From: Escherichia phage JLBYU22
Strand: one strand, 5' to 3'
Sequence record: OK272484.1
Length of the DNA stretch: 64,000 nt
Part shown: positions 3,990 to 28,887 of the stretch, piece after piece
Position numbering within the stretch: the stretch's first letter is position 1
Layout of the letters: every line of letters begins with the position of its first letter
The notes under the pieces: generated by a model
What the model saw: the letters and a program-made list of their open reading frames with translations, nothing else
What the model was told of the DNA's origin: nothing
Database searches by the model: none
Translations under genes and position numbers: made by a program

Positions 3990-4414
3990 TGCTTCTGATC
4001 CCTGAAACTCATGAATTAGTTCTCGAGAATGTCGAAGCACTTATTCCTGAAGCACAGGGTCGCTTTGACGAATTGTCTTCTGCTTTAAATAAAGACGATA
4101 TAAATACAATTGTCGAGAATATGCTTGATGATGAAACTGATTTAGCGGTTGCATTAGCTTCTATTAATGAAAATATGCCGTTAAATGAATTTATCGTTAA
4201 ACATGTTTCTGCCCGTGGTGAAATTACTCGCACTAAAGATCGCAAAACCCGCGAACGTAATGCATTTCAAACTACCGGGTTGTCTAAAGCAAAACGTAGA
4301 CAAATTGCTCGTAAAGCTACCAAAACGAAGATTGCCAATCCAGCAGGTCAATCTCGTGCTCAGCGTAAGCGTAAAAAAGCTCTTAAACGCCGTAAAGCAT
4401 TAGGATTAAGCTAA
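3989..4414 (+). CDS. 68: Prohead core protein gp68
   Basis: 141 aa as in T4; synteny. Confidence 0.85.
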
Positions 4415-5052
4415 TGAATGAACCCCAATTACTAATTGAAACTTGGGGTCAACCTGGCGAAATTATTGATGGCGTACCAATGCTTGAATCTCATGATGGA
4501 AAAGACTTAGGTTTAAAACCTGGTTTATACATCGAAGGAATATTCATGCAAGCGGAAGTCGTCAATAGAAATAAACGTCTTTATCCAAAACGTATATTAG
4601 AAAAAGCGGTAAAAGACTATATTAATGAGCAAGTTTTAACTAAACAAGCTCTCGGAGAATTAAATCATCCTCCACGCGCTAATGTTGACCCGATGCAAGC
4701 CGCTATCATTATAGAAGATATGTGGTGGAAAGGAAATGACGTATACGGACGAGCTCGTGTTATTGAAGGTGACCATGGTCCTGGAGATAAATTAGCAGCT
4801 AATATTCGTGCCGGATGGATTCCAGGAGTTTCTTCTCGTGGATTAGGTTCATTGACTGACACAAATAAAGGTTATCGTATCGTAAACGAAGGATTCAAAT
4901 TAACTGTAGGTGTTGATGCAGTATGGGGTCCAAGTGCTCCAGATGCATGGGTAACTCCTAAGGAAATTACCGAATCACAGACGGCGGAAGCCGATACAAG
5001 TGCCGATGACGCCTATATGGCTCTCGCAGAGGCCATGAAAAAAGCGTTATAA
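4414..5052 (+). CDS. 21: Prohead core protease gp21
   Basis: 212 aa as in T4 gp21; synteny. Confidence 0.95.
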   Translation: MNEPQLLIETWGQPGEIIDGVPMLESHDGKDLGLKPGLYIEGIFMQAEVVNRNKRLYPKRILEKAVKDYINEQVLTKQALGELNHPPRANVDPMQAAIIIEDMWWKGNDVYGRARVIEGDHGPGDKLAANIRAGWIPGVSSRGLGSLTDTNKGYRIVNEGFKLTVGVDAVWGPSAPDAWVTPKEITESQTAEADTSADDAYMALAEAMKKAL

Positions 5053-22652: not shown

Positions 22653-22656
22653 CAAT

Positions 22657-22674
22657 GGGGACCGAAAGGTCCCC
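22657..22674. terminator. Bidirectional terminator hairpin GGGGACC-GAAA-GGTCCCC between gene 54 and the convergent minus-strand block
   Basis: 7-bp perfect GC stem with T-run downstream. Confidence 0.8.
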
Positions 22675-22680
22675 ATATTT

Positions 22681-22971
22681 TTATTTACGGAATGAAATAA
22701 AAGCAGCAACTGAAGCAACTAAACTGTCTTCAATATAAACTTCAATTTTTACCGGAGCTTCTGACTCAAATTTACCTGTTACTACACCTTGGAAAATGCT
22801 TTCAGTCTGTTCTGGCTTTGAAAAATTTTCAGAAGGAAAAATTCCGAACTTTTTATCTGTTCCAAAAATTTTGATAAATTCATCGTAAACTGCTTCATTA
22901 AAAGCATTATCAGCAGGAATAACGCCTTCAACTACAAGTTCTTGACCTAAAAAGCGCAAAGAAGATTTCAT
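22681..22971 (-). CDS. Hypothetical 96-aa protein (position of T4 alt.-3)
   Basis: GAGGA RBS 7 nt upstream of ATG; preceded by early-promoter-like element. Confidence 0.65.
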   Translation of the reverse strand: MKSSLRFLGQELVVEGVIPADNAFNEAVYDEFIKIFGTDKKFGIFPSENFSKPEQTESIFQGVVTGKFESEAPVKIEVYIEDSLVASVAAFISFRK

Positions 22972-22978
22972 TTTGTGT

Positions 22979-23032
22979 TCCTCATGTTATGTCAGTAAGA
23001 TTACTATAACACAACACGAGGGACTTGTAAAC
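22979..23032 (-). promoter_or_regulatory. Early promoter-like element plus leader (-35 GTTTAC, 17-nt spacer, -10-like TTATAG, leader ending in GAGGA); copy A of a 54-bp repeat
   Basis: 52 of 54 nt identical to 38136-38189; the -35 overlaps the stop codon of the upstream Alt paralog. Confidence 0.6.
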
Positions 23033-25089
23033 TACATTTTGAACTTTTTAGACATTCCGTTAATGTTAACCAAAGAAGCTAAGATTTGAGAAACTTCGTT
23101 TTCCTCTTCTTTTGATTCTTCGACAAGGAATTGATTAAATCCAGTCATTGGACGAACTTCACCAGTTTCCATCAAATGGTCGCCATCATATACTGATTCC
23201 TCTAATTGTTCAGAAGGAGGAACGATTGTACCTTCGATTAGATACTTGTTATAAGCAGTTTCTTTCATAAAGTACGTACTTACTTTATTAATCTTCAGTA
23301 AAATTCCACGTGGTAGAATAACTTCAGCTTCTGATGGAAATCCTGATAAATGACCTGGAACGATAACTTTGATTCGCTCAGCTCCTTTAATTACCATACC
23401 CACGCTAGTTTCGGCATCTTCACTAGCATATGTAGAATGACTACCCATATGCATCAAATCTTCTGCATCAACGGAACCTTCTCCTTCACCAGAAAATACT
23501 GCGCCGGAATCATCTAAGGCCATATAGTTTTTACCATGCTCACCGAAGATATTTGGTTTAAGCGATGTGGATACGAAGTTCTTGAAATAGAACATTTTGT
23601 TTTCAATGTTATGACGCAAAGTTTTAAATGTAACTTCTTGTCCACGGTAAAGTGTAGTTCCTGGAGGAAGAACTGAACCTTTAGCGAATGCAGAATCAAG
23701 CGTCTCAATATGTTTAATAGCTCGTTCCATATATTCTTCGCGGGTAGAATCTGGTTTACCCAAAAGGAACGAGTTCATTTCAACATATGAATCTGCACAA
23801 TAATCTTCAATTACATCAGATTCAGCTTGAGTTAATCCTTTTGGAGTTACTTCGGTGCTCGCGTATTCATATGCCTGAGCGGCAGATTCATTAATCAATT
23901 TATAAATGCCATTCATGACAAATTGAATAATAGCTGTCTTTTCATCTGGTGTAGCTTTAGAACCTTTAACTAAATCATTGATAATTTTCTTAATAACATC
24001 AAAGCTATTAGAAATATTAATGTCAGCAAGATCGCTTAAAATTTTATCAGTTTTATAATCAAAGAATTCTTTATTCTTTAAATATTCTTGAGAACCTTGA
24101 TATGTTATATCGCTCTGCAACTTGATAGATGGATCACGTAAACGCGCATGGGCTAATGCAATATGATTTCGGAAACTTTCTAGTTCATAATCATTAGATT
24201 TAAAACGAGAAGCACTTCTCATACCACCGATAGCTCCTTTGTTAAAGTTTGAACCAATCTGGATAACCCCGGAGTTCATTGGTCCTTCTGCTTTATATAC
24301 CGGAACTTTAGATTCAAACTCTTGATATTTCTTAGCAGCGAAGCTATCACCCTGAAGTGAAGCATCAACAGTAGAATATTGAGCTTGTGCTGCTAATCGA
24401 CGACTAATTTTAGTTTTCTGAATAACAGCTTGATCCGTGCGCTTATCATTTTCTAAGGCAATAGAAGCAGCAACAGCAACAGCTTTAGGAACAGCATTAC
24501 CTGTTTTAACGTCTACATAAACATCACCAACCTTTGATTCAACTTTTGTGAATAACTCAGTTGAAATAGGAGGTACACCTGGAATGTCTTCTAAATTGGC
24601 ATTTTTACGGTAAACCATAATATATGCATACTTTTTATCGTAATCCCAGATTTCCTTTAAAAGAGCATATCGACCTGCTCCTTTAGTACGTACTAAACGG
24701 TCAGCAATAACTTGCATTTGACGAGCTGCGCCATTTGTTTTACTCTTTAGTACGCGGAATAAGCATGCATCAATTTTATACTGTTTCATTGTTTGAAGAG
24801 CAGTATCAAAAACCGCATTAATGACACCAATTGGATTTCCACCCAAGTTTTTAAGTTTAACGAGCGATAGTTTCTCATTGACACCTATCATTACGATATG
24901 CATCATTTTATCGCCTGGCTTAACGTTTTTATTTGTATCACCGCCAGAGGTGTATGTACAAAATCTAAATCCAGGAAGCACACTTTCTTCGCCGGCTTGA
25001 ATAGCAAAAATTTGCGGTATTTTATGCTTAGGATTTAAGTTAACAACCGGCGCCGAAGCGCCGTCAAATAATTCTGTAATAAGTTCCAT
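23032..25089 (-). CDS. Alt-family mono-ADP-ribosyltransferase paralog (685 aa), probably head-packaged
   Basis: N-terminal ~230 aa near-identical to the adjacent Alt; ART motifs YRGQ, FVSTSL and EAEVILPRG; start coupled 3 nt after the alt stop. Confidence 0.8.
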   Translation of the reverse strand: MELITELFDGASAPVVNLNPKHKIPQIFAIQAGEESVLPGFRFCTYTSGGDTNKNVKPGDKMMHIVMIGVNEKLSLVKLKNLGGNPIGVINAVFDTALQTMKQYKIDACLFRVLKSKTNGAARQMQVIADRLVRTKGAGRYALLKEIWDYDKKYAYIMVYRKNANLEDIPGVPPISTELFTKVESKVGDVYVDVKTGNAVPKAVAVAASIALENDKRTDQAVIQKTKISRRLAAQAQYSTVDASLQGDSFAAKKYQEFESKVPVYKAEGPMNSGVIQIGSNFNKGAIGGMRSASRFKSNDYELESFRNHIALAHARLRDPSIKLQSDITYQGSQEYLKNKEFFDYKTDKILSDLADINISNSFDVIKKIINDLVKGSKATPDEKTAIIQFVMNGIYKLINESAAQAYEYASTEVTPKGLTQAESDVIEDYCADSYVEMNSFLLGKPDSTREEYMERAIKHIETLDSAFAKGSVLPPGTTLYRGQEVTFKTLRHNIENKMFYFKNFVSTSLKPNIFGEHGKNYMALDDSGAVFSGEGEGSVDAEDLMHMGSHSTYASEDAETSVGMVIKGAERIKVIVPGHLSGFPSEAEVILPRGILLKINKVSTYFMKETAYNKYLIEGTIVPPSEQLEESVYDGDHLMETGEVRPMTGFNQFLVEESKEEENEVSQILASLVNINGMSKKFKM

Positions 25090-25092
25090 GAT

Positions 25093-27186
25093 TTATCCTT
25101 GAACGAACTTGTAAGGCATGTTTGTAATATCTATGCAAGACGCAATAATTCCAAGAGATGATTCTACTTTTTGTTTAACATTTGATGAAACAAATGATGC
25201 AAAGTCAACTCTGTCTTCTATTTCAATATCACCTGTCATTGCAACTACTTCGCCGGTTTCCATTAAATGGTCTCCATCATAGATTACCGATTCGGTGAGC
25301 TCTTCCGTGGTCATAACTTCAGCTTGAATGAGTTTTGTATTATTAGACGTGGTTCCGTCATTATTAGAAGCATCAGTTATTTTATTAACTTTGACCATCA
25401 ATCCGCGCGGTAGAATAACTTCAGCTTCTGTTGCTATTCCGAGACTTCCTGGATATACAACATTAACTTTATGAGCTCCATCAATTGCCCATCCTATTTG
25501 AACTTTAACGTATTCAGGATTTTCTTTATACGCTCTTATTTCGTTTGGATTAATAGTTATTCCTTCTTCATTTTTATCAACTGTCAATTCATTACGAGCT
25601 TCTGGTTCTAAAAGACCAATACCAGCATGTGTAATTCCAAAACGTCCAAAAATGATAGGAGTTAAAGAAGTAGATACAAAATTTCTGAAATAGAACACTT
25701 TATTTTTAACTAGTGCTTCGTATATAGGAGCAGTCATACTTTGAGCACGATAAACTGTGATGCCTTCCGGTATGCGGTCACCATTTTCAAAAGCTGAATC
25801 TAAGTTATTTATAGCAGATTCAATTTCTTTTTCACTCATTACATCATATCGTTCTGGATTGTAACGACCTAAAAGAAGATTATTGATGTCAGTATATCCT
25901 GAACCGCAATATTCTCTAATGCCACGCTTTTGTGATGGAGTATATTTAGAACCATCGCGGGCAATAGTAATATCAATCATTGGACCAGCACCAATTCCAG
26001 AAAAACTGTAAATCATTCGTTTGAGGAATTTAGTTTTTGCTGCGTTCCAGGAATTTTTAGTTATTTCTTCCCAGACTTCATCTGGTTGTCCTTTACGATT
26101 TTTATTATGATTAGCAAGCCATTTATCTTTATAATCTTCAAAGAATTGATTTACAGCTGCTGCGTATTTCTCTAAACATTTTATTGAAGTAGTTGGTTCA
26201 TTTTTAATCGCATTAAGAATTACATCTTTAATTTTTTCAGAAACTTCATTAACCTCACTTTTTGAAAAGAATTTATAGTCATAATGAAGTTCATCTGCAG
26301 TTCCTTCGGCAATGATTTTTGCTGCTTTAGTTTTAGAAGCTAATGAATTAATTCCAAGCTTCATTTCTTCTGCTTCGGGAATTAAAGGAGCCGTAGCAGG
26401 TTTATTGAAATTAGCTGCGGTAGATTCATACTTTTGGAATAATTCACTTTCAAATCTAGAAGATTCTAATGATTGACTTTGTGCAATTGCTCTACGGGAA
26501 ATTTTAACTTTAACGATTACAGCTTGGTCAGAACGTTTATCGTTTTCTTGCGCAATAGATGCAGCAATTGCCTCATTTTTAGTTACTTGAGCTCCAGTAT
26601 CTTTATTGATATAAACATCACCGACCTTTGATTCAACTTTAGTAAAGAGCTCGGTACTAATTTCCGGAACTCCTGGAATGTCTTCTAGTGATACATTTTT
26701 GCGATGTATAAGAATATATGCATACTTTTTATCGTAATCCCAGAGTTCCTTAAGAAGGACGTATCTACCACCTGAACGACTACGGATAAGTCTATCAGCA
26801 ATAACTTGAATTTGTCGAGCTTGACCAGCGGTTTTAGACTTAAGAATACGGAGCATACAGGCATCAATTTTATACTGACGCATAGTTTGCATTGCAACAG
26901 TAAAAACTGAATTGATATAATTAATTGGGCTTGGACCAAGACCTTTTAATTTAGCAATTGAACCTTTAGCAGTTAATGTAAAAGGAACAATATGCATCAT
27001 TTTATCGCCCATCTTTAAATCGCGATTAGTATCACCTCCAGATGTATAGGTGCATAAACGAAAGCCTGGCTGTTCAATTGCATCATCAACGTGAACTGAA
27101 AAAATTTGCGGTATTTTCTTCTTTGGATTTAAGTTTGTAATCGGAAGAGTAGTATCTTCGTCAAATAATTCTGTAATAAGTTCCAT
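25093..27186 (-). CDS. alt: Alt ADP-ribosyltransferase (head protein that modifies host RNA polymerase in T4)
   Basis: About 697 aa (track has an extra Met at 27189); ART motifs YRAQ, FVSTSL and EAEVILPRG; position adjacent to gene 30 as in T4. Confidence 0.85.
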   Translation of the reverse strand: MELITELFDEDTTLPITNLNPKKKIPQIFSVHVDDAIEQPGFRLCTYTSGGDTNRDLKMGDKMMHIVPFTLTAKGSIAKLKGLGPSPINYINSVFTVAMQTMRQYKIDACMLRILKSKTAGQARQIQVIADRLIRSRSGGRYVLLKELWDYDKKYAYILIHRKNVSLEDIPGVPEISTELFTKVESKVGDVYINKDTGAQVTKNEAIAASIAQENDKRSDQAVIVKVKISRRAIAQSQSLESSRFESELFQKYESTAANFNKPATAPLIPEAEEMKLGINSLASKTKAAKIIAEGTADELHYDYKFFSKSEVNEVSEKIKDVILNAIKNEPTTSIKCLEKYAAAVNQFFEDYKDKWLANHNKNRKGQPDEVWEEITKNSWNAAKTKFLKRMIYSFSGIGAGPMIDITIARDGSKYTPSQKRGIREYCGSGYTDINNLLLGRYNPERYDVMSEKEIESAINNLDSAFENGDRIPEGITVYRAQSMTAPIYEALVKNKVFYFRNFVSTSLTPIIFGRFGITHAGIGLLEPEARNELTVDKNEEGITINPNEIRAYKENPEYVKVQIGWAIDGAHKVNVVYPGSLGIATEAEVILPRGLMVKVNKITDASNNDGTTSNNTKLIQAEVMTTEELTESVIYDGDHLMETGEVVAMTGDIEIEDRVDFASFVSSNVKQKVESSLGIIASCIDITNMPYKFVQG

Positions 27187-27209
27187 CATAGCCTCTCTAG
27201 TGTTTATTC

Positions 27210-27217
27210 TATTTATA
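27210..27217 (-). promoter_or_regulatory. Late promoter box TATAAATA (minus strand) ~20 nt upstream of alt
   Basis: Plus strand reads TATTTATA; consistent with Alt being a late, packaged protein. Confidence 0.6.
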
Positions 27218-27223
27218 AAATTA

Positions 27224-27240
27224 AAGGCCCGAAGGCCTTT
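27224..27240 (-). terminator. Hairpin AAAGGCC-CGAA-GGCCTTT after the 62-aa ORF
   Basis: Inverted repeat read directly; U-rich on the minus strand. Confidence 0.5.
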
Positions 27241-27427
27241 AGTAATCTAGTGGTAAGAGAGTACGATATATTTCAAACTTTGGTCCTTTTTCATAGGCAT
27301 CAAATGTTTCTGTAAATTTATTATAAGCGTATGCATCTACAAATTCGAGAATGACTTGTGATACAGAAGTAGAAACATCTCCACCTTCTTTTTGAGCAAT
27401 GACAATTGTTTCTAAGTAAGCTTTCAT
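27239..27427 (-). CDS. Hypothetical 62-aa protein between gene 30 and alt
   Basis: ATGA start/stop overlap with the gene 30 stop. Confidence 0.6.
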   Translation of the reverse strand: MKAYLETIVIAQKEGGDVSTSVSQVILEFVDAYAYNKFTETFDAYEKGPKFEIYRTLLPLDY

Positions 27428-28887
27428 AGACCAGTTACCTCATGAAAATCACCAAATACATCCTCGAATGTATTAGCTTTAGTTTTATCTTCACGTAAAC
27501 GAATCGCAATCGGAAGAAATAATTTAACGTAATCAGTGCGGCCATCAGATTTTAACCAACCGTTGCATTCGCACTCTAGAATTTTTCCAATATAATAATT
27601 TTGGTTTTCCATAATGCGAGTACGGTCAAGCTCATGTGATTTTACGCCGGCTTTATCTTTTAAGCCTGAACCAGCATTTACTTTAATTTTTCCACACTCT
27701 GACTCAAGAATAAATCCACCTGCTTTAGTAGGGTCTTTACGGTGAGGATAAATTCCTACAATTTTTAAATCAACATCAATTACTTCTTTAAATTTATAGA
27801 GATTTTTTGAACGGGCATTTTCCCATAACCCATCAACGTTTTTGAGAATAATACCTTCAAGACCTTGATCAATATACTTTTTGTAAATTACCTTAGCTTC
27901 ATCTAGGTTATTTACTACCTGGTTTTCAATTAAAATTACTTTATCATAGCCTGATGTCATTTGTTCTAGTTTAGAAAAACGTACATCATACTTTAAACGA
28001 AATGCAGGAAGACCATATATTTCTACTAATGGAACATAATCCCAGACCTGAAACTTCATGCATTGTGCTTCTTTTTCGGAAATGGTTCCCTTTAAAGATT
28101 TATTAGCGATTCCATTAGAAGCAGTACGTGATTCAGCTACTTCGGCGAATTCTTTAGCTTTACTAATTTCAGGATAAGCATTAAAAAGAAAATCTAGGCC
28201 TTCTGGCTCCTTTTTAACTTGCTCATGGTATACCAATTCGCCATCAATTAACACACCTTCTGGATGAATCTGGCGGGCTTCAGCGGTCATTTTAATTAAC
28301 TCTTCCTTAAGAAGATCTAATCCTAGATATTCATTACCAGCTCGTGATAAAAGACGAACATCATCTAATTCATCACCTCTGACTTCAGCAAAGCACCGAG
28401 CTCCATCAGCTTTTAACTGGGCAAAAGCTGGAAATTTGATATTCTTATTAATGCCTTTTTCATCATAAGAACTTGCAAGCATTTGAGGTTGTTCAGGAAT
28501 TAAACCTGGCCAAACTTTGTTTGCAATAGATACTGAAGCACCGCATTCAAGGTCTCGCATCATCACTCGACGCAAAACTTCAACATCATCTTTTTTACCA
28601 TCGGTGATATATCCAATTAATTCCTCAATTGCCGCATTTCCAGTCAATTTCCGAGTAGCTAACGTGAATTCAATGAAGTCAAGCATATCGGTAAGAGTCA
28701 ACATTCCAAAACTCTGGGTAGCAATACCCGGTTTAGGCCATTTCTTGATATAATACTGTAACCCACGAGAATAAGTCAGACGATATACTCGTTTAAGCAA
28801 TTCATTATCTTTGTTCTTTTCAAGAATTGCTTGCTTCTGCTTAGTTGAACCAATAGATGCTATTTCGTTCAGAATTTTAAGAATCAT
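27424..28887 (-). CDS. 30: ATP-dependent DNA ligase gp30
   Basis: 487 aa; KADGAR adenylation motif. Confidence 0.97.
   Translation of the reverse strand: MILKILNEIASIGSTKQKQAILEKNKDNELLKRVYRLTYSRGLQYYIKKWPKPGIATQSFGMLTLTDMLDFIEFTLATRKLTGNAAIEELIGYITDGKKDDVEVLRRVMMRDLECGASVSIANKVWPGLIPEQPQMLASSYDEKGINKNIKFPAFAQLKADGARCFAEVRGDELDDVRLLSRAGNEYLGLDLLKEELIKMTAEARQIHPEGVLIDGELVYHEQVKKEPEGLDFLFNAYPEISKAKEFAEVAESRTASNGIANKSLKGTISEKEAQCMKFQVWDYVPLVEIYGLPAFRLKYDVRFSKLEQMTSGYDKVILIENQVVNNLDEAKVIYKKYIDQGLEGIILKNVDGLWENARSKNLYKFKEVIDVDLKIVGIYPHRKDPTKAGGFILESECGKIKVNAGSGLKDKAGVKSHELDRTRIMENQNYYIGKILECECNGWLKSDGRTDYVKLFLPIAIRLREDKTKANTFEDVFGDFHEVTGL

Follow-up and report, generated by a model that had tools for sequence, protein, structure and literature searches.

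What is a second gene of the Alt family doing in a T4-like phage, and is it the gene that is known from T4 as alt.-2? The question is raised by a 64,000-nucleotide (nt) stretch of Escherichia phage JLBYU22 (sequence record OK272484.1), the whole of which is called the window below and which matches Escherichia phage TH09 (MT446387.1), a Tequatrovirus, at 100%. On the minus strand of the window lie two tandem genes for Alt-family ADP-ribosyltransferases (ARTs): alt, and a second Alt-like gene whose product is called AltB here. A reading of the letters alone, referred to as the sequence-only reading, had described this pair and had left open whether the second copy is T4 alt.-2. It is the intact gene, and T4 alt.-1 and alt.-2 together are its N-terminal remnant. 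The explanation that we favour, with a probability of roughly 80%, is an intact two-gene locus whose proteins would both be packaged and injected ARTs, probably with different targets.

Two intact genes in tandem

The two genes and their ribosome-binding sites are the following (all positions are those of the window).

27192-27197, minus strand: ribosome-binding site GAGAGG for alt, whose ATG at 27186 lies 5 nt further on
25093-27186, minus strand: alt, AltA lineage, T2/T6-type allele; 697 amino acids plus stop, with N-domain, helical middle domain, ART domain and C-terminal propeptide
25096-25100, minus strand: AAGGA ribosome-binding site of the AltB gene, within the last alt codons and 6 nt upstream of the AltB ATG
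23032-25089, minus strand: full-length alt.-2 (AltB lineage), 685 amino acids plus stop

The tandem open reading frames of 685 and about 697 amino acids are thus found where the sequence-only reading had placed them, and both proteins begin with MELITELFD. Counted from its first ATG the upstream frame covers 25093-27189 and encodes 698 amino acids, while the second ATG, at 27186, gives 697 amino acids starting MELITELFD. The true start of alt is almost certainly this second ATG, because the GAGAGG is spaced for it and because the first ATG reads ATA in phage Phaginator. At the junction between the genes, the alt TAA (25093-25095) is followed by a spacer of 3 nt and the AltB ATG (25087-25089). 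The junction sequence, which is identical in 9 phages compared, agrees with the earlier description of a downstream copy that starts 3 nt past the upstream stop behind AAGGA.

T4 carries a remnant of the second gene

In T4, alt.-1 (61 amino acids, NP_049810) and alt.-2 (67 amino acids, NP_049809) align almost residue for residue with AltB codons 1-117. Two changes separate T4 from the window. The DNA alignment shows that one A is missing from an A-run in T4, and this frameshift splits the sequence into alt.-1 and alt.-2. In addition, T4 lacks the 1.69 kb that correspond to 23052-24741 in the window, with a TTTAG microhomology common to both break points. This deletion takes amino acids 118 to about 680, hence there is no ART domain left, and only the last 5 codons and the stop are retained. 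The profiles phrog_23015 and phrog_15247, whose 61 and 67 positions match T4 Alt.-1 and Alt.-2 in length, both score AltB above alt.

T4 is not typical of its relatives in this respect. At least 80% of the 4.9-kb locus is present in 353 records, and the divergent 446 amino acids of AltB are found at 95% identity or more in about 401 phage records. In 91 records, at least 80% of a query that bridges the T4 deletion junction is covered. T2 and T6 each carry the pair of 697 and 685 amino acids. The AltB orthologues (in T2, T6, RB3, RB14, RB32, GiZh and some 400 other Tequatrovirus records) have 96-100% amino acid identity, the same length and the same junction, and the AltB of the window shows no material difference from these other Tequatrovirus alt.-2 products; it is one more instance. 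The two-gene alt locus is the majority form among close relatives of T4, and T4 is a degenerate minority state, a 117-codon remnant left by a 1-nt deletion and a 1.69-kb deletion.

This is not how the databases present it. In GenBank the second gene is named alt.-2 (RB3, RB14, T6) or "Alt-like RNA polymerase ADP-ribosyltransferase", and according to notes in the records of T6 (L009 3302-5359) and GiZh (L002 1933-3990) the long gene is an "apparent insertion in alt.-2". The polarity of that annotation is backwards, T4-centred and misleading, as it is T4 that has the deletion. The T4 GenBank record itself derives alt.-1 and alt.-2 from a duplication of alt.

Domains and catalytic motifs

Both window proteins match Pfam PF03496 (1.7e-37 and 5.9e-20) and, end to end, phrog_802, the Alt family of T4-like phages (3.8e-273 for alt, 9.8e-257 for AltB). 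These matches, with the R / S-x-S / E-x-E residues that are invariant in a 22-sequence alignment, back the description of the pair as two tandem Alt-family ARTs. The two proteins divide into the following parts.

26470-27186, minus strand: N-domain of alt
25096-25290, minus strand: C-terminal propeptide of alt
24376-25089, minus strand: N-domain of AltB (amino acids 1-238), Alt-specific, alpha/beta, with the ITE-6 protease site at 25072-25086; a candidate head-incorporation module
23845-24375, minus strand: helical middle domain of AltB (amino acids 239-415), a candidate target-recognition region; 20% identical to alt and 45% to JS98 altB, no Pfam match
23197-23844, minus strand: ART domain of AltB (amino acids 416-631), with R482 (23644-23646), S507-T508-S509 (23563-23571), F584 and E587-A588-E589 (23323-23331); it ends at LEE-631
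23035-23196, minus strand: C-terminal propeptide of AltB (amino acids 632-685), with a conserved YDGDHLMETGE and a terminal KF; removal by gp21 is predicted

By BLASTP, alt and AltB are 42% identical (E = 4e-161), and the identity is unevenly spread: 67% over the N-terminal 238 amino acids, 20% in the middle (amino acids 241-415) and 34% in the ART part. The sequence-only reading had the N-terminal 230 or so amino acids as near-identical and the rest as diverged. The divergence holds, and at 67% the N-terminal parts are related, not near-identical. Near the C-terminus, a 12-residue block, YDGDHLMETGEV, is identical in both.

The complete R / S-T-S / E-x-E signature that had been read in both copies can be located exactly in each: YRAQ at 479-482, FVSTSL at 503-508 and EAEVILPRG at 587-595 (EAE 587-589) in alt, and YRGQ at 481-484, FVSTSL at 505-510 and EAEVILPRG at 587-595 in AltB. 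Loss of the catalytic Glu or of the STS motif on careful alignment had been named as what would refute the assignment. Neither is lost; AltB R482, S507, S509, E587 and E589 are invariant in the 22-sequence alignment, which spans both lineages. When the PDB sequences were searched with alt, the Arg and the E-x-E aligned with CdtA and iota toxin, as weak matches that cover those regions only, and the same search with AltB gave no match at E <= 0.01. We know of no Alt structure available for comparison. In ARTs an E-x-E motif (Glu first, not Gln) goes with arginine specificity. Both window copies have E-A-E, the arginine-type motif, and would by this motif be specific for arginine.

Outside the ART domain the family databases offer less. 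NCBIfam has no model for alt or AltB, and Pfam has nothing for the N-domain of either paralog or for the AltB middle domain, a sub-threshold CesA match (E = 0.022) being discounted. Among precomputed annotations of homologues, PF26846 stands for the Alt-specific N-domain. An AlphaFold model of AltB has an alpha/beta N-domain at residues ~12-225 (pLDDT about 65-85), a helical region at 230-470, the ART domain at 475-625 and a low-confidence tail from 629; the middle domain is modelled as all-helical, with pLDDT 75-90.

A profile of the Alt N-domain finds just 74 clusters among 1.84 billion proteins, almost all of them Alt-like, and the match begins at residues 1-43 in every cluster except one low-complexity junk hit. 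The idea that this N-domain is widely fused to non-ART effectors is therefore poorly supported. A few distant proteins are of another kind. P0184 (541 amino acids) is the only one with an Alt N-domain and no recognisable ART motifs. P0182 is a degenerate ART, with Lys in place of the catalytic Arg and Asn in place of the first Glu. The ART of P0187 (1142 amino acids) is also degenerate, and some 500 additional residues come after it; P0188 is likewise a distant protein with an Alt N-domain and an altered C-terminal part. In all four, the same delivery module may carry a cargo that is inactivated or is not an ART.

Two old lineages

The proteins of T4, the window and the Dhakavirus phages JS98 and AnYang were compared domain by domain. 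In this comparison, alt and AltB of the window are 10% identical in the middle domain and 34% in the ART domain. AltB groups with JS98 altB and AnYang copy 3 (middle domain 45%, ART domain 57%, C-terminus 61-66%), and the alt of the window groups with JS98 altA (middle domain 33%, ART domain 60%). Because the AltB middle and ART domains group with JS98 altB and not with the neighbouring alt, the split between AltA and AltB is, on this grouping, older than the genus and predates the split between Tequatrovirus and Dhakavirus. JS98 altA and altB are likewise tandem Alt paralogs at the same locus, but their identity to the window proteins is just 45-57%. Dhakavirus AnYang (L008 1-5356) has three tandem Alt-like genes there, that is, a third copy compared with the window. 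The middle domain of the middle AnYang copy is 8-23% identical to those of altA and altB, and is unlike either. From phage to phage the number of cassettes at the alt locus seems to vary between 1 and 3.

The N-domains behave differently from the rest of the proteins in that they group by genome, with 65-93% identity between paralogs within a genome and 41-47% between genera. A recent gene conversion between the N-domains of the window was considered and is rejected by their synonymous divergence (pS = 0.59); the same codon is used at 103 of the 160 identical residues. Either homogenisation in the distant past or co-evolution with the head core of each genus would fit the pattern. Several AltB orthologues (P0003-P0007 in alignment A2, 89-96% identical) start with MELITELFDED like alt, and not with MELITELFD-GAS, which suggests that in some phages short stretches at the 5' end have been exchanged between the paralogs.

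Signs of probable packaging and cleavage

Mass spectrometry has shown that the prohead protease gp21 cuts T4 Alt in two places, behind ITE-6 and behind LTE-619, which takes off a 63-residue C-terminal propeptide (PMC5694885, PMC9026906). The MELITE start had been said to fit the prohead-protease consensus, and it does coincide with the published T4 Alt site ITE-6 (PMC5694885), which is kept in both copies. The C-terminal site that aligns with T4 LTE-619 is LTE-632 in alt and LEE-631 in AltB. Across the family this site is (L/I/M)-x-E followed by S or A, and the Glu in position P1 is invariant, as it is in the 22-sequence alignment at both E6 and E631. At the AltB site and in the propeptide behind it, E631, Y634, D635, G636, D637, E641, G643 and E644 are invariant, with K-F at the end, and the confidence of the AltB model collapses at residue 629, shortly ahead of the predicted cleavage. 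The window also has the gene for the protease that would process both Alt proteins.

4414-5052, plus strand: gp21 prohead protease, 212 amino acids, Pfam Peptidase_S77 (1.5e-111)

Both gp21 sites, the conserved propeptide, the drop in model confidence and the presence of gp21 in the window all point to AltB being packaged, trimmed to about 625 amino acids and ejected like Alt.

Among the residues that vary least in the family, across lineages and genera, are several in the propeptides that gp21 removes (YDGD, E-x-GE and the terminal KF). A discarded peptide with such conservation probably has a role, either in targeting to the head or in preventing enzyme activity inside the producing cell.

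Possible targets and comparison with known ARTs

In the pairwise alignment with T4 Alt, which had been proposed as a check, the alt of the window is 72% identical overall and AltB 43%. The difference between the alt of the window and T4 Alt is concentrated: the N-terminal 238 amino acids are 100% identical (rounded), whereas amino acids 250-600 (25387-26439) are about 47% identical, and amino acids ~270-413 are without DNA similarity. The alt type of the window, which is that of T2 and T6, is found at 95% or more in 312 records, and 33 more have a type that is 80-90% identical.

T4 Alt (NP_049811) is a head-packaged, injected NAD:arginine mono-ADP-ribosyltransferase, and the window proteins share with it the domain order, the MELITE propeptide and the R / STS / ExE residues, as well as the C-terminal L-x-E and the YDGDHLMETGE propeptide behind it. 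Their genes also have the late promoter of T4 alt and its place between gene 30/alt.1 and alt.-3. AltB differs from T4 Alt in its middle domain (12% identity), in its ART domain (35%) and in having an aromatic ARTT residue, which T4 Alt is without. In C3 and iota toxins, an aromatic residue 3 positions before the first catalytic Glu/Gln serves substrate recognition (the ARTT motif). The residue at this place is F or Y in every AltB-lineage sequence, and I, P, Q or H in the AltA lineage. As the ARTT loops differ, the middle domains look unrelated and the lineages are old and separate, alt and AltB probably have different sets of targets, as the sequence-only reading had suggested.

The phage group already offers a precedent for sub-functionalised paralogs. 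Mod proteins are small and early, and they have neither the Alt N-domain nor the propeptides. T4 ModA and ModB are also tandem, diverged R-S-E ARTs with different targets (PMC5512222; bioRxiv 10.1101/2021.06.04.446905), and in contrast to Alt they are not injected from the head (PMC5512222). The R-S-E toxins (Vis, the C3 exoenzymes, and iota / CDTa / VIP2) are only 14-26% identical to the Alt proteins; they rely on secretion or binary delivery instead of a phage head, and are without the Alt N-domain and the helical middle domain.

Neighbouring genes and transcription

On the minus strand the gene order is gene 30, alt.1, alt, the AltB gene and alt.-3, with genes 48 and 54 just beyond on the plus strand. 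The neighbours and the signals around the pair are the following.

27424-28887, minus strand: gene 30 (DNA ligase)
27239-27427, minus strand: alt.1 (Phage_blade)
27222-27241, minus strand: terminator-like hairpin behind alt.1, made up of TAAAGGCCTTCGGGCCTTTA and a T-run after it, where transcription from upstream ends right ahead of the alt promoter
27210-27217, minus strand: T4-type late promoter box TATAAATA upstream of alt, found at this place in each of the 9 phages compared, among them T4
25806-25813, minus strand: second TATAAATA, inside alt, in codons for A-I-N-N; present in 6 of 8 two-gene phages, absent from RB3 and EP01
23003-23031, minus strand: sigma-70 / T4-early-type promoter of alt.-3, (G)TTTACA - 17 nt - TATAGT with an upstream TG; conserved in 9 phages, it marks the 3' edge of the alt pair
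22681-22971, minus strand: alt.-3 (DUF5498), 96 amino acids, the downstream neighbour, not an ART
22655-22676, both strands: bidirectional terminator hairpin that separates alt.-3 from gene 54; going downstream from the alt promoter on the minus strand, no terminator-like site comes before it

The late box that had been reported ahead of the pair is found at 27210-27217, and by the T4 consensus it would act as a late promoter. The hairpin before it is also listed as the alt.1 terminator in phage UFV13 (PMC5931544). A scan of the window found no terminator-like site between alt and the AltB gene and none between the AltB gene and alt.-3. The 3-nt gap, the missing terminator and the conservation of late box and junction in 9 phages make co-transcription of alt and AltB from one late promoter the simplest reading. 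It is worth noting that the bare TATAAATA motif occurs 18 times in the window where about 9 are expected by chance, so a single match is weak evidence.

The alt.-3 promoter and the stop codon of the AltB gene overlap. T4 mutants with a C-terminal extension of alt.-3 escape the CmdTAC defence (PMC11618068).

Weighing the alternatives

Could the second frame be a decaying pseudogene that happens to be still open in this phage? The broken remnant in T4 invites the idea, yet it is about as improbable as a reading of this locus can be. The ratio of non-synonymous to synonymous substitution (dN/dS), taken pairwise over six Tequatrovirus genomes in all of which the gene length is fixed, is 0.02-0.09 for alt and 0.02-0.07 for AltB; every AltB domain is below 0.08, and the N-domain is the most constrained (0.026). 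Judged by the low ratio of 0.02-0.07 the AltB gene is functional, and the pseudogene reading is rejected on this ground. The 37-82 synonymous against 6-20 non-synonymous differences per pair, the preservation of the divergent 446 amino acids in the roughly 401 records and the orthologues in another genus also speak against decay. The same numbers bear on whether AltB is a redundant duplicate, with the same job and the same targets as Alt, which would raise the dose of injected enzyme or serve as a back-up. Such redundancy fits the domain order, catalytic motifs and cleavage sites common to both proteins, and it fits the survival of T4 and about 91 records on a single copy. Of a duplicate that serves dosage, however, one would expect that it remains alike or is lost, and here the middle domains are 10-20% and the ART domains 34% identical, the two lineages have been kept apart in both Tequatrovirus and Dhakavirus, the ARTT loops are consistently different and strong purifying selection acts on each gene separately; we regard this alternative as distinctly unlikely. 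A little less probable still is an AltB that is made late and not packaged, acting in the producing cell or filling a non-catalytic role, structural or regulatory. The copy number of Alt is low, about 40 per head (PMC9026906), so a second species could be overlooked or absent. That AltB keeps ITE-6, the C-terminal L-x-E and YDGDHLMETGE, which in T4 Alt are tied to prohead processing, is hard to reconcile with this, as are the invariance of all catalytic residues and the N-domain having the lowest dN/dS.

Transcription is where an alternative comes closest, though it too is unlikely: the AltB gene may have its own late promoter, the internal TATAAATA, and not simply be co-transcribed. This box is an exact match on the coding strand, 717 nt upstream of the AltB ATG, and most of the two-gene phages have it. 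It is missing, however, in RB3 and EP01, whose AltB gene is intact, it is absent from the alt allele of T4, and it is one of a motif found twice as often as expected. It also encodes A-I-N-N and may be incidental; and with no terminator in between, it would supplement read-through from upstream and not replace it. An extra late start for the AltB gene is thus possible, but the internal box is probably incidental.

Besides this box, several points weigh against an intact locus with two injected effectors. A search of the literature for the function, virion detection or name of the second copy found annotation-level mentions only and no experimental study of AltB, and the proteomics papers on HY01, UFV13 and Morganella MP1 do not report a second Alt. 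The AltB model is of moderate quality (mean pLDDT 74.6, pTM 0.59, built on the 22-sequence alignment). T4 Alt modifies the alpha subunit of RNA polymerase and other proteins (PMC5512222), and these known targets are not confidently transferable even to the alt of the window, because amino acids 250-600 are just about 47% identical. Finally, AltB is dispensable at least on laboratory hosts, as T4 and about 90 related records lack an intact gene.

What was known before

Duplications of Alt are mentioned in the literature (PMC1524935, PMC4177764), and the second of these papers also mentions a copy in ZZ1 that is split into an N-domain gene and an ART gene. The pair is already known as a genomic feature, an ordinary and widely annotated locus that holds no surprise for specialists. 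What is added here is that T4 is the degenerate case, that AltB is an old and constrained lineage, that both gp21 sites and the propeptide are kept, and that the substrate loop is unlike that of Alt.

A possible mechanism and its meaning

In the favoured explanation, of an intact pair of injected ARTs, both genes would be transcribed late from the TATAAATA box at 27210-27217, with AltB translated from its own AAGGA. Four modules would make up each protein: first the Alt-specific N-domain, then a helical middle domain and an R-S-E ART domain of the arginine type, and last the C-terminal propeptide. The shared N-domain together with the propeptides would direct both into the prohead core. There gp21 would cut each protein in two places, behind ITE-6 and behind LTE-632 in alt or LEE-631 in AltB, and so leave mature proteins of ~625 amino acids. 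These would be ejected with the DNA and would mono-ADP-ribosylate host proteins on arginine, and the two old lineages of middle and ART domains, with their different ARTT loops, would probably give different target sets.

A more specific reading, which we hold tentatively and at a little under even odds, is that AltB is a second injected effector with its own substrates, which its separate helical domain and its canonical aromatic ARTT loop would define, and that the alt locus is an expandable array of 1 to 3 cassettes. On this reading T4, the laboratory model, has lost a second effector. Phage ADP-ribosyltransferases are currently an active topic, with ModB RNAylation and the CmdTAC defence system as examples, and an uncharacterised, probably injected ART in classic phages is a cheap and tractable lead of modest interest. 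An intact and strongly constrained AltB has been kept in T2, T6 and about four fifths of the sequenced Tequatroviruses. If AltB is indeed a second effector, a genome-specific head-delivery module, made up of the N-domain and the propeptides, would carry interchangeable effector modules, and AltB might explain some of the differences between T2/T6 and T4 in host takeover or in resistance to host defence systems.

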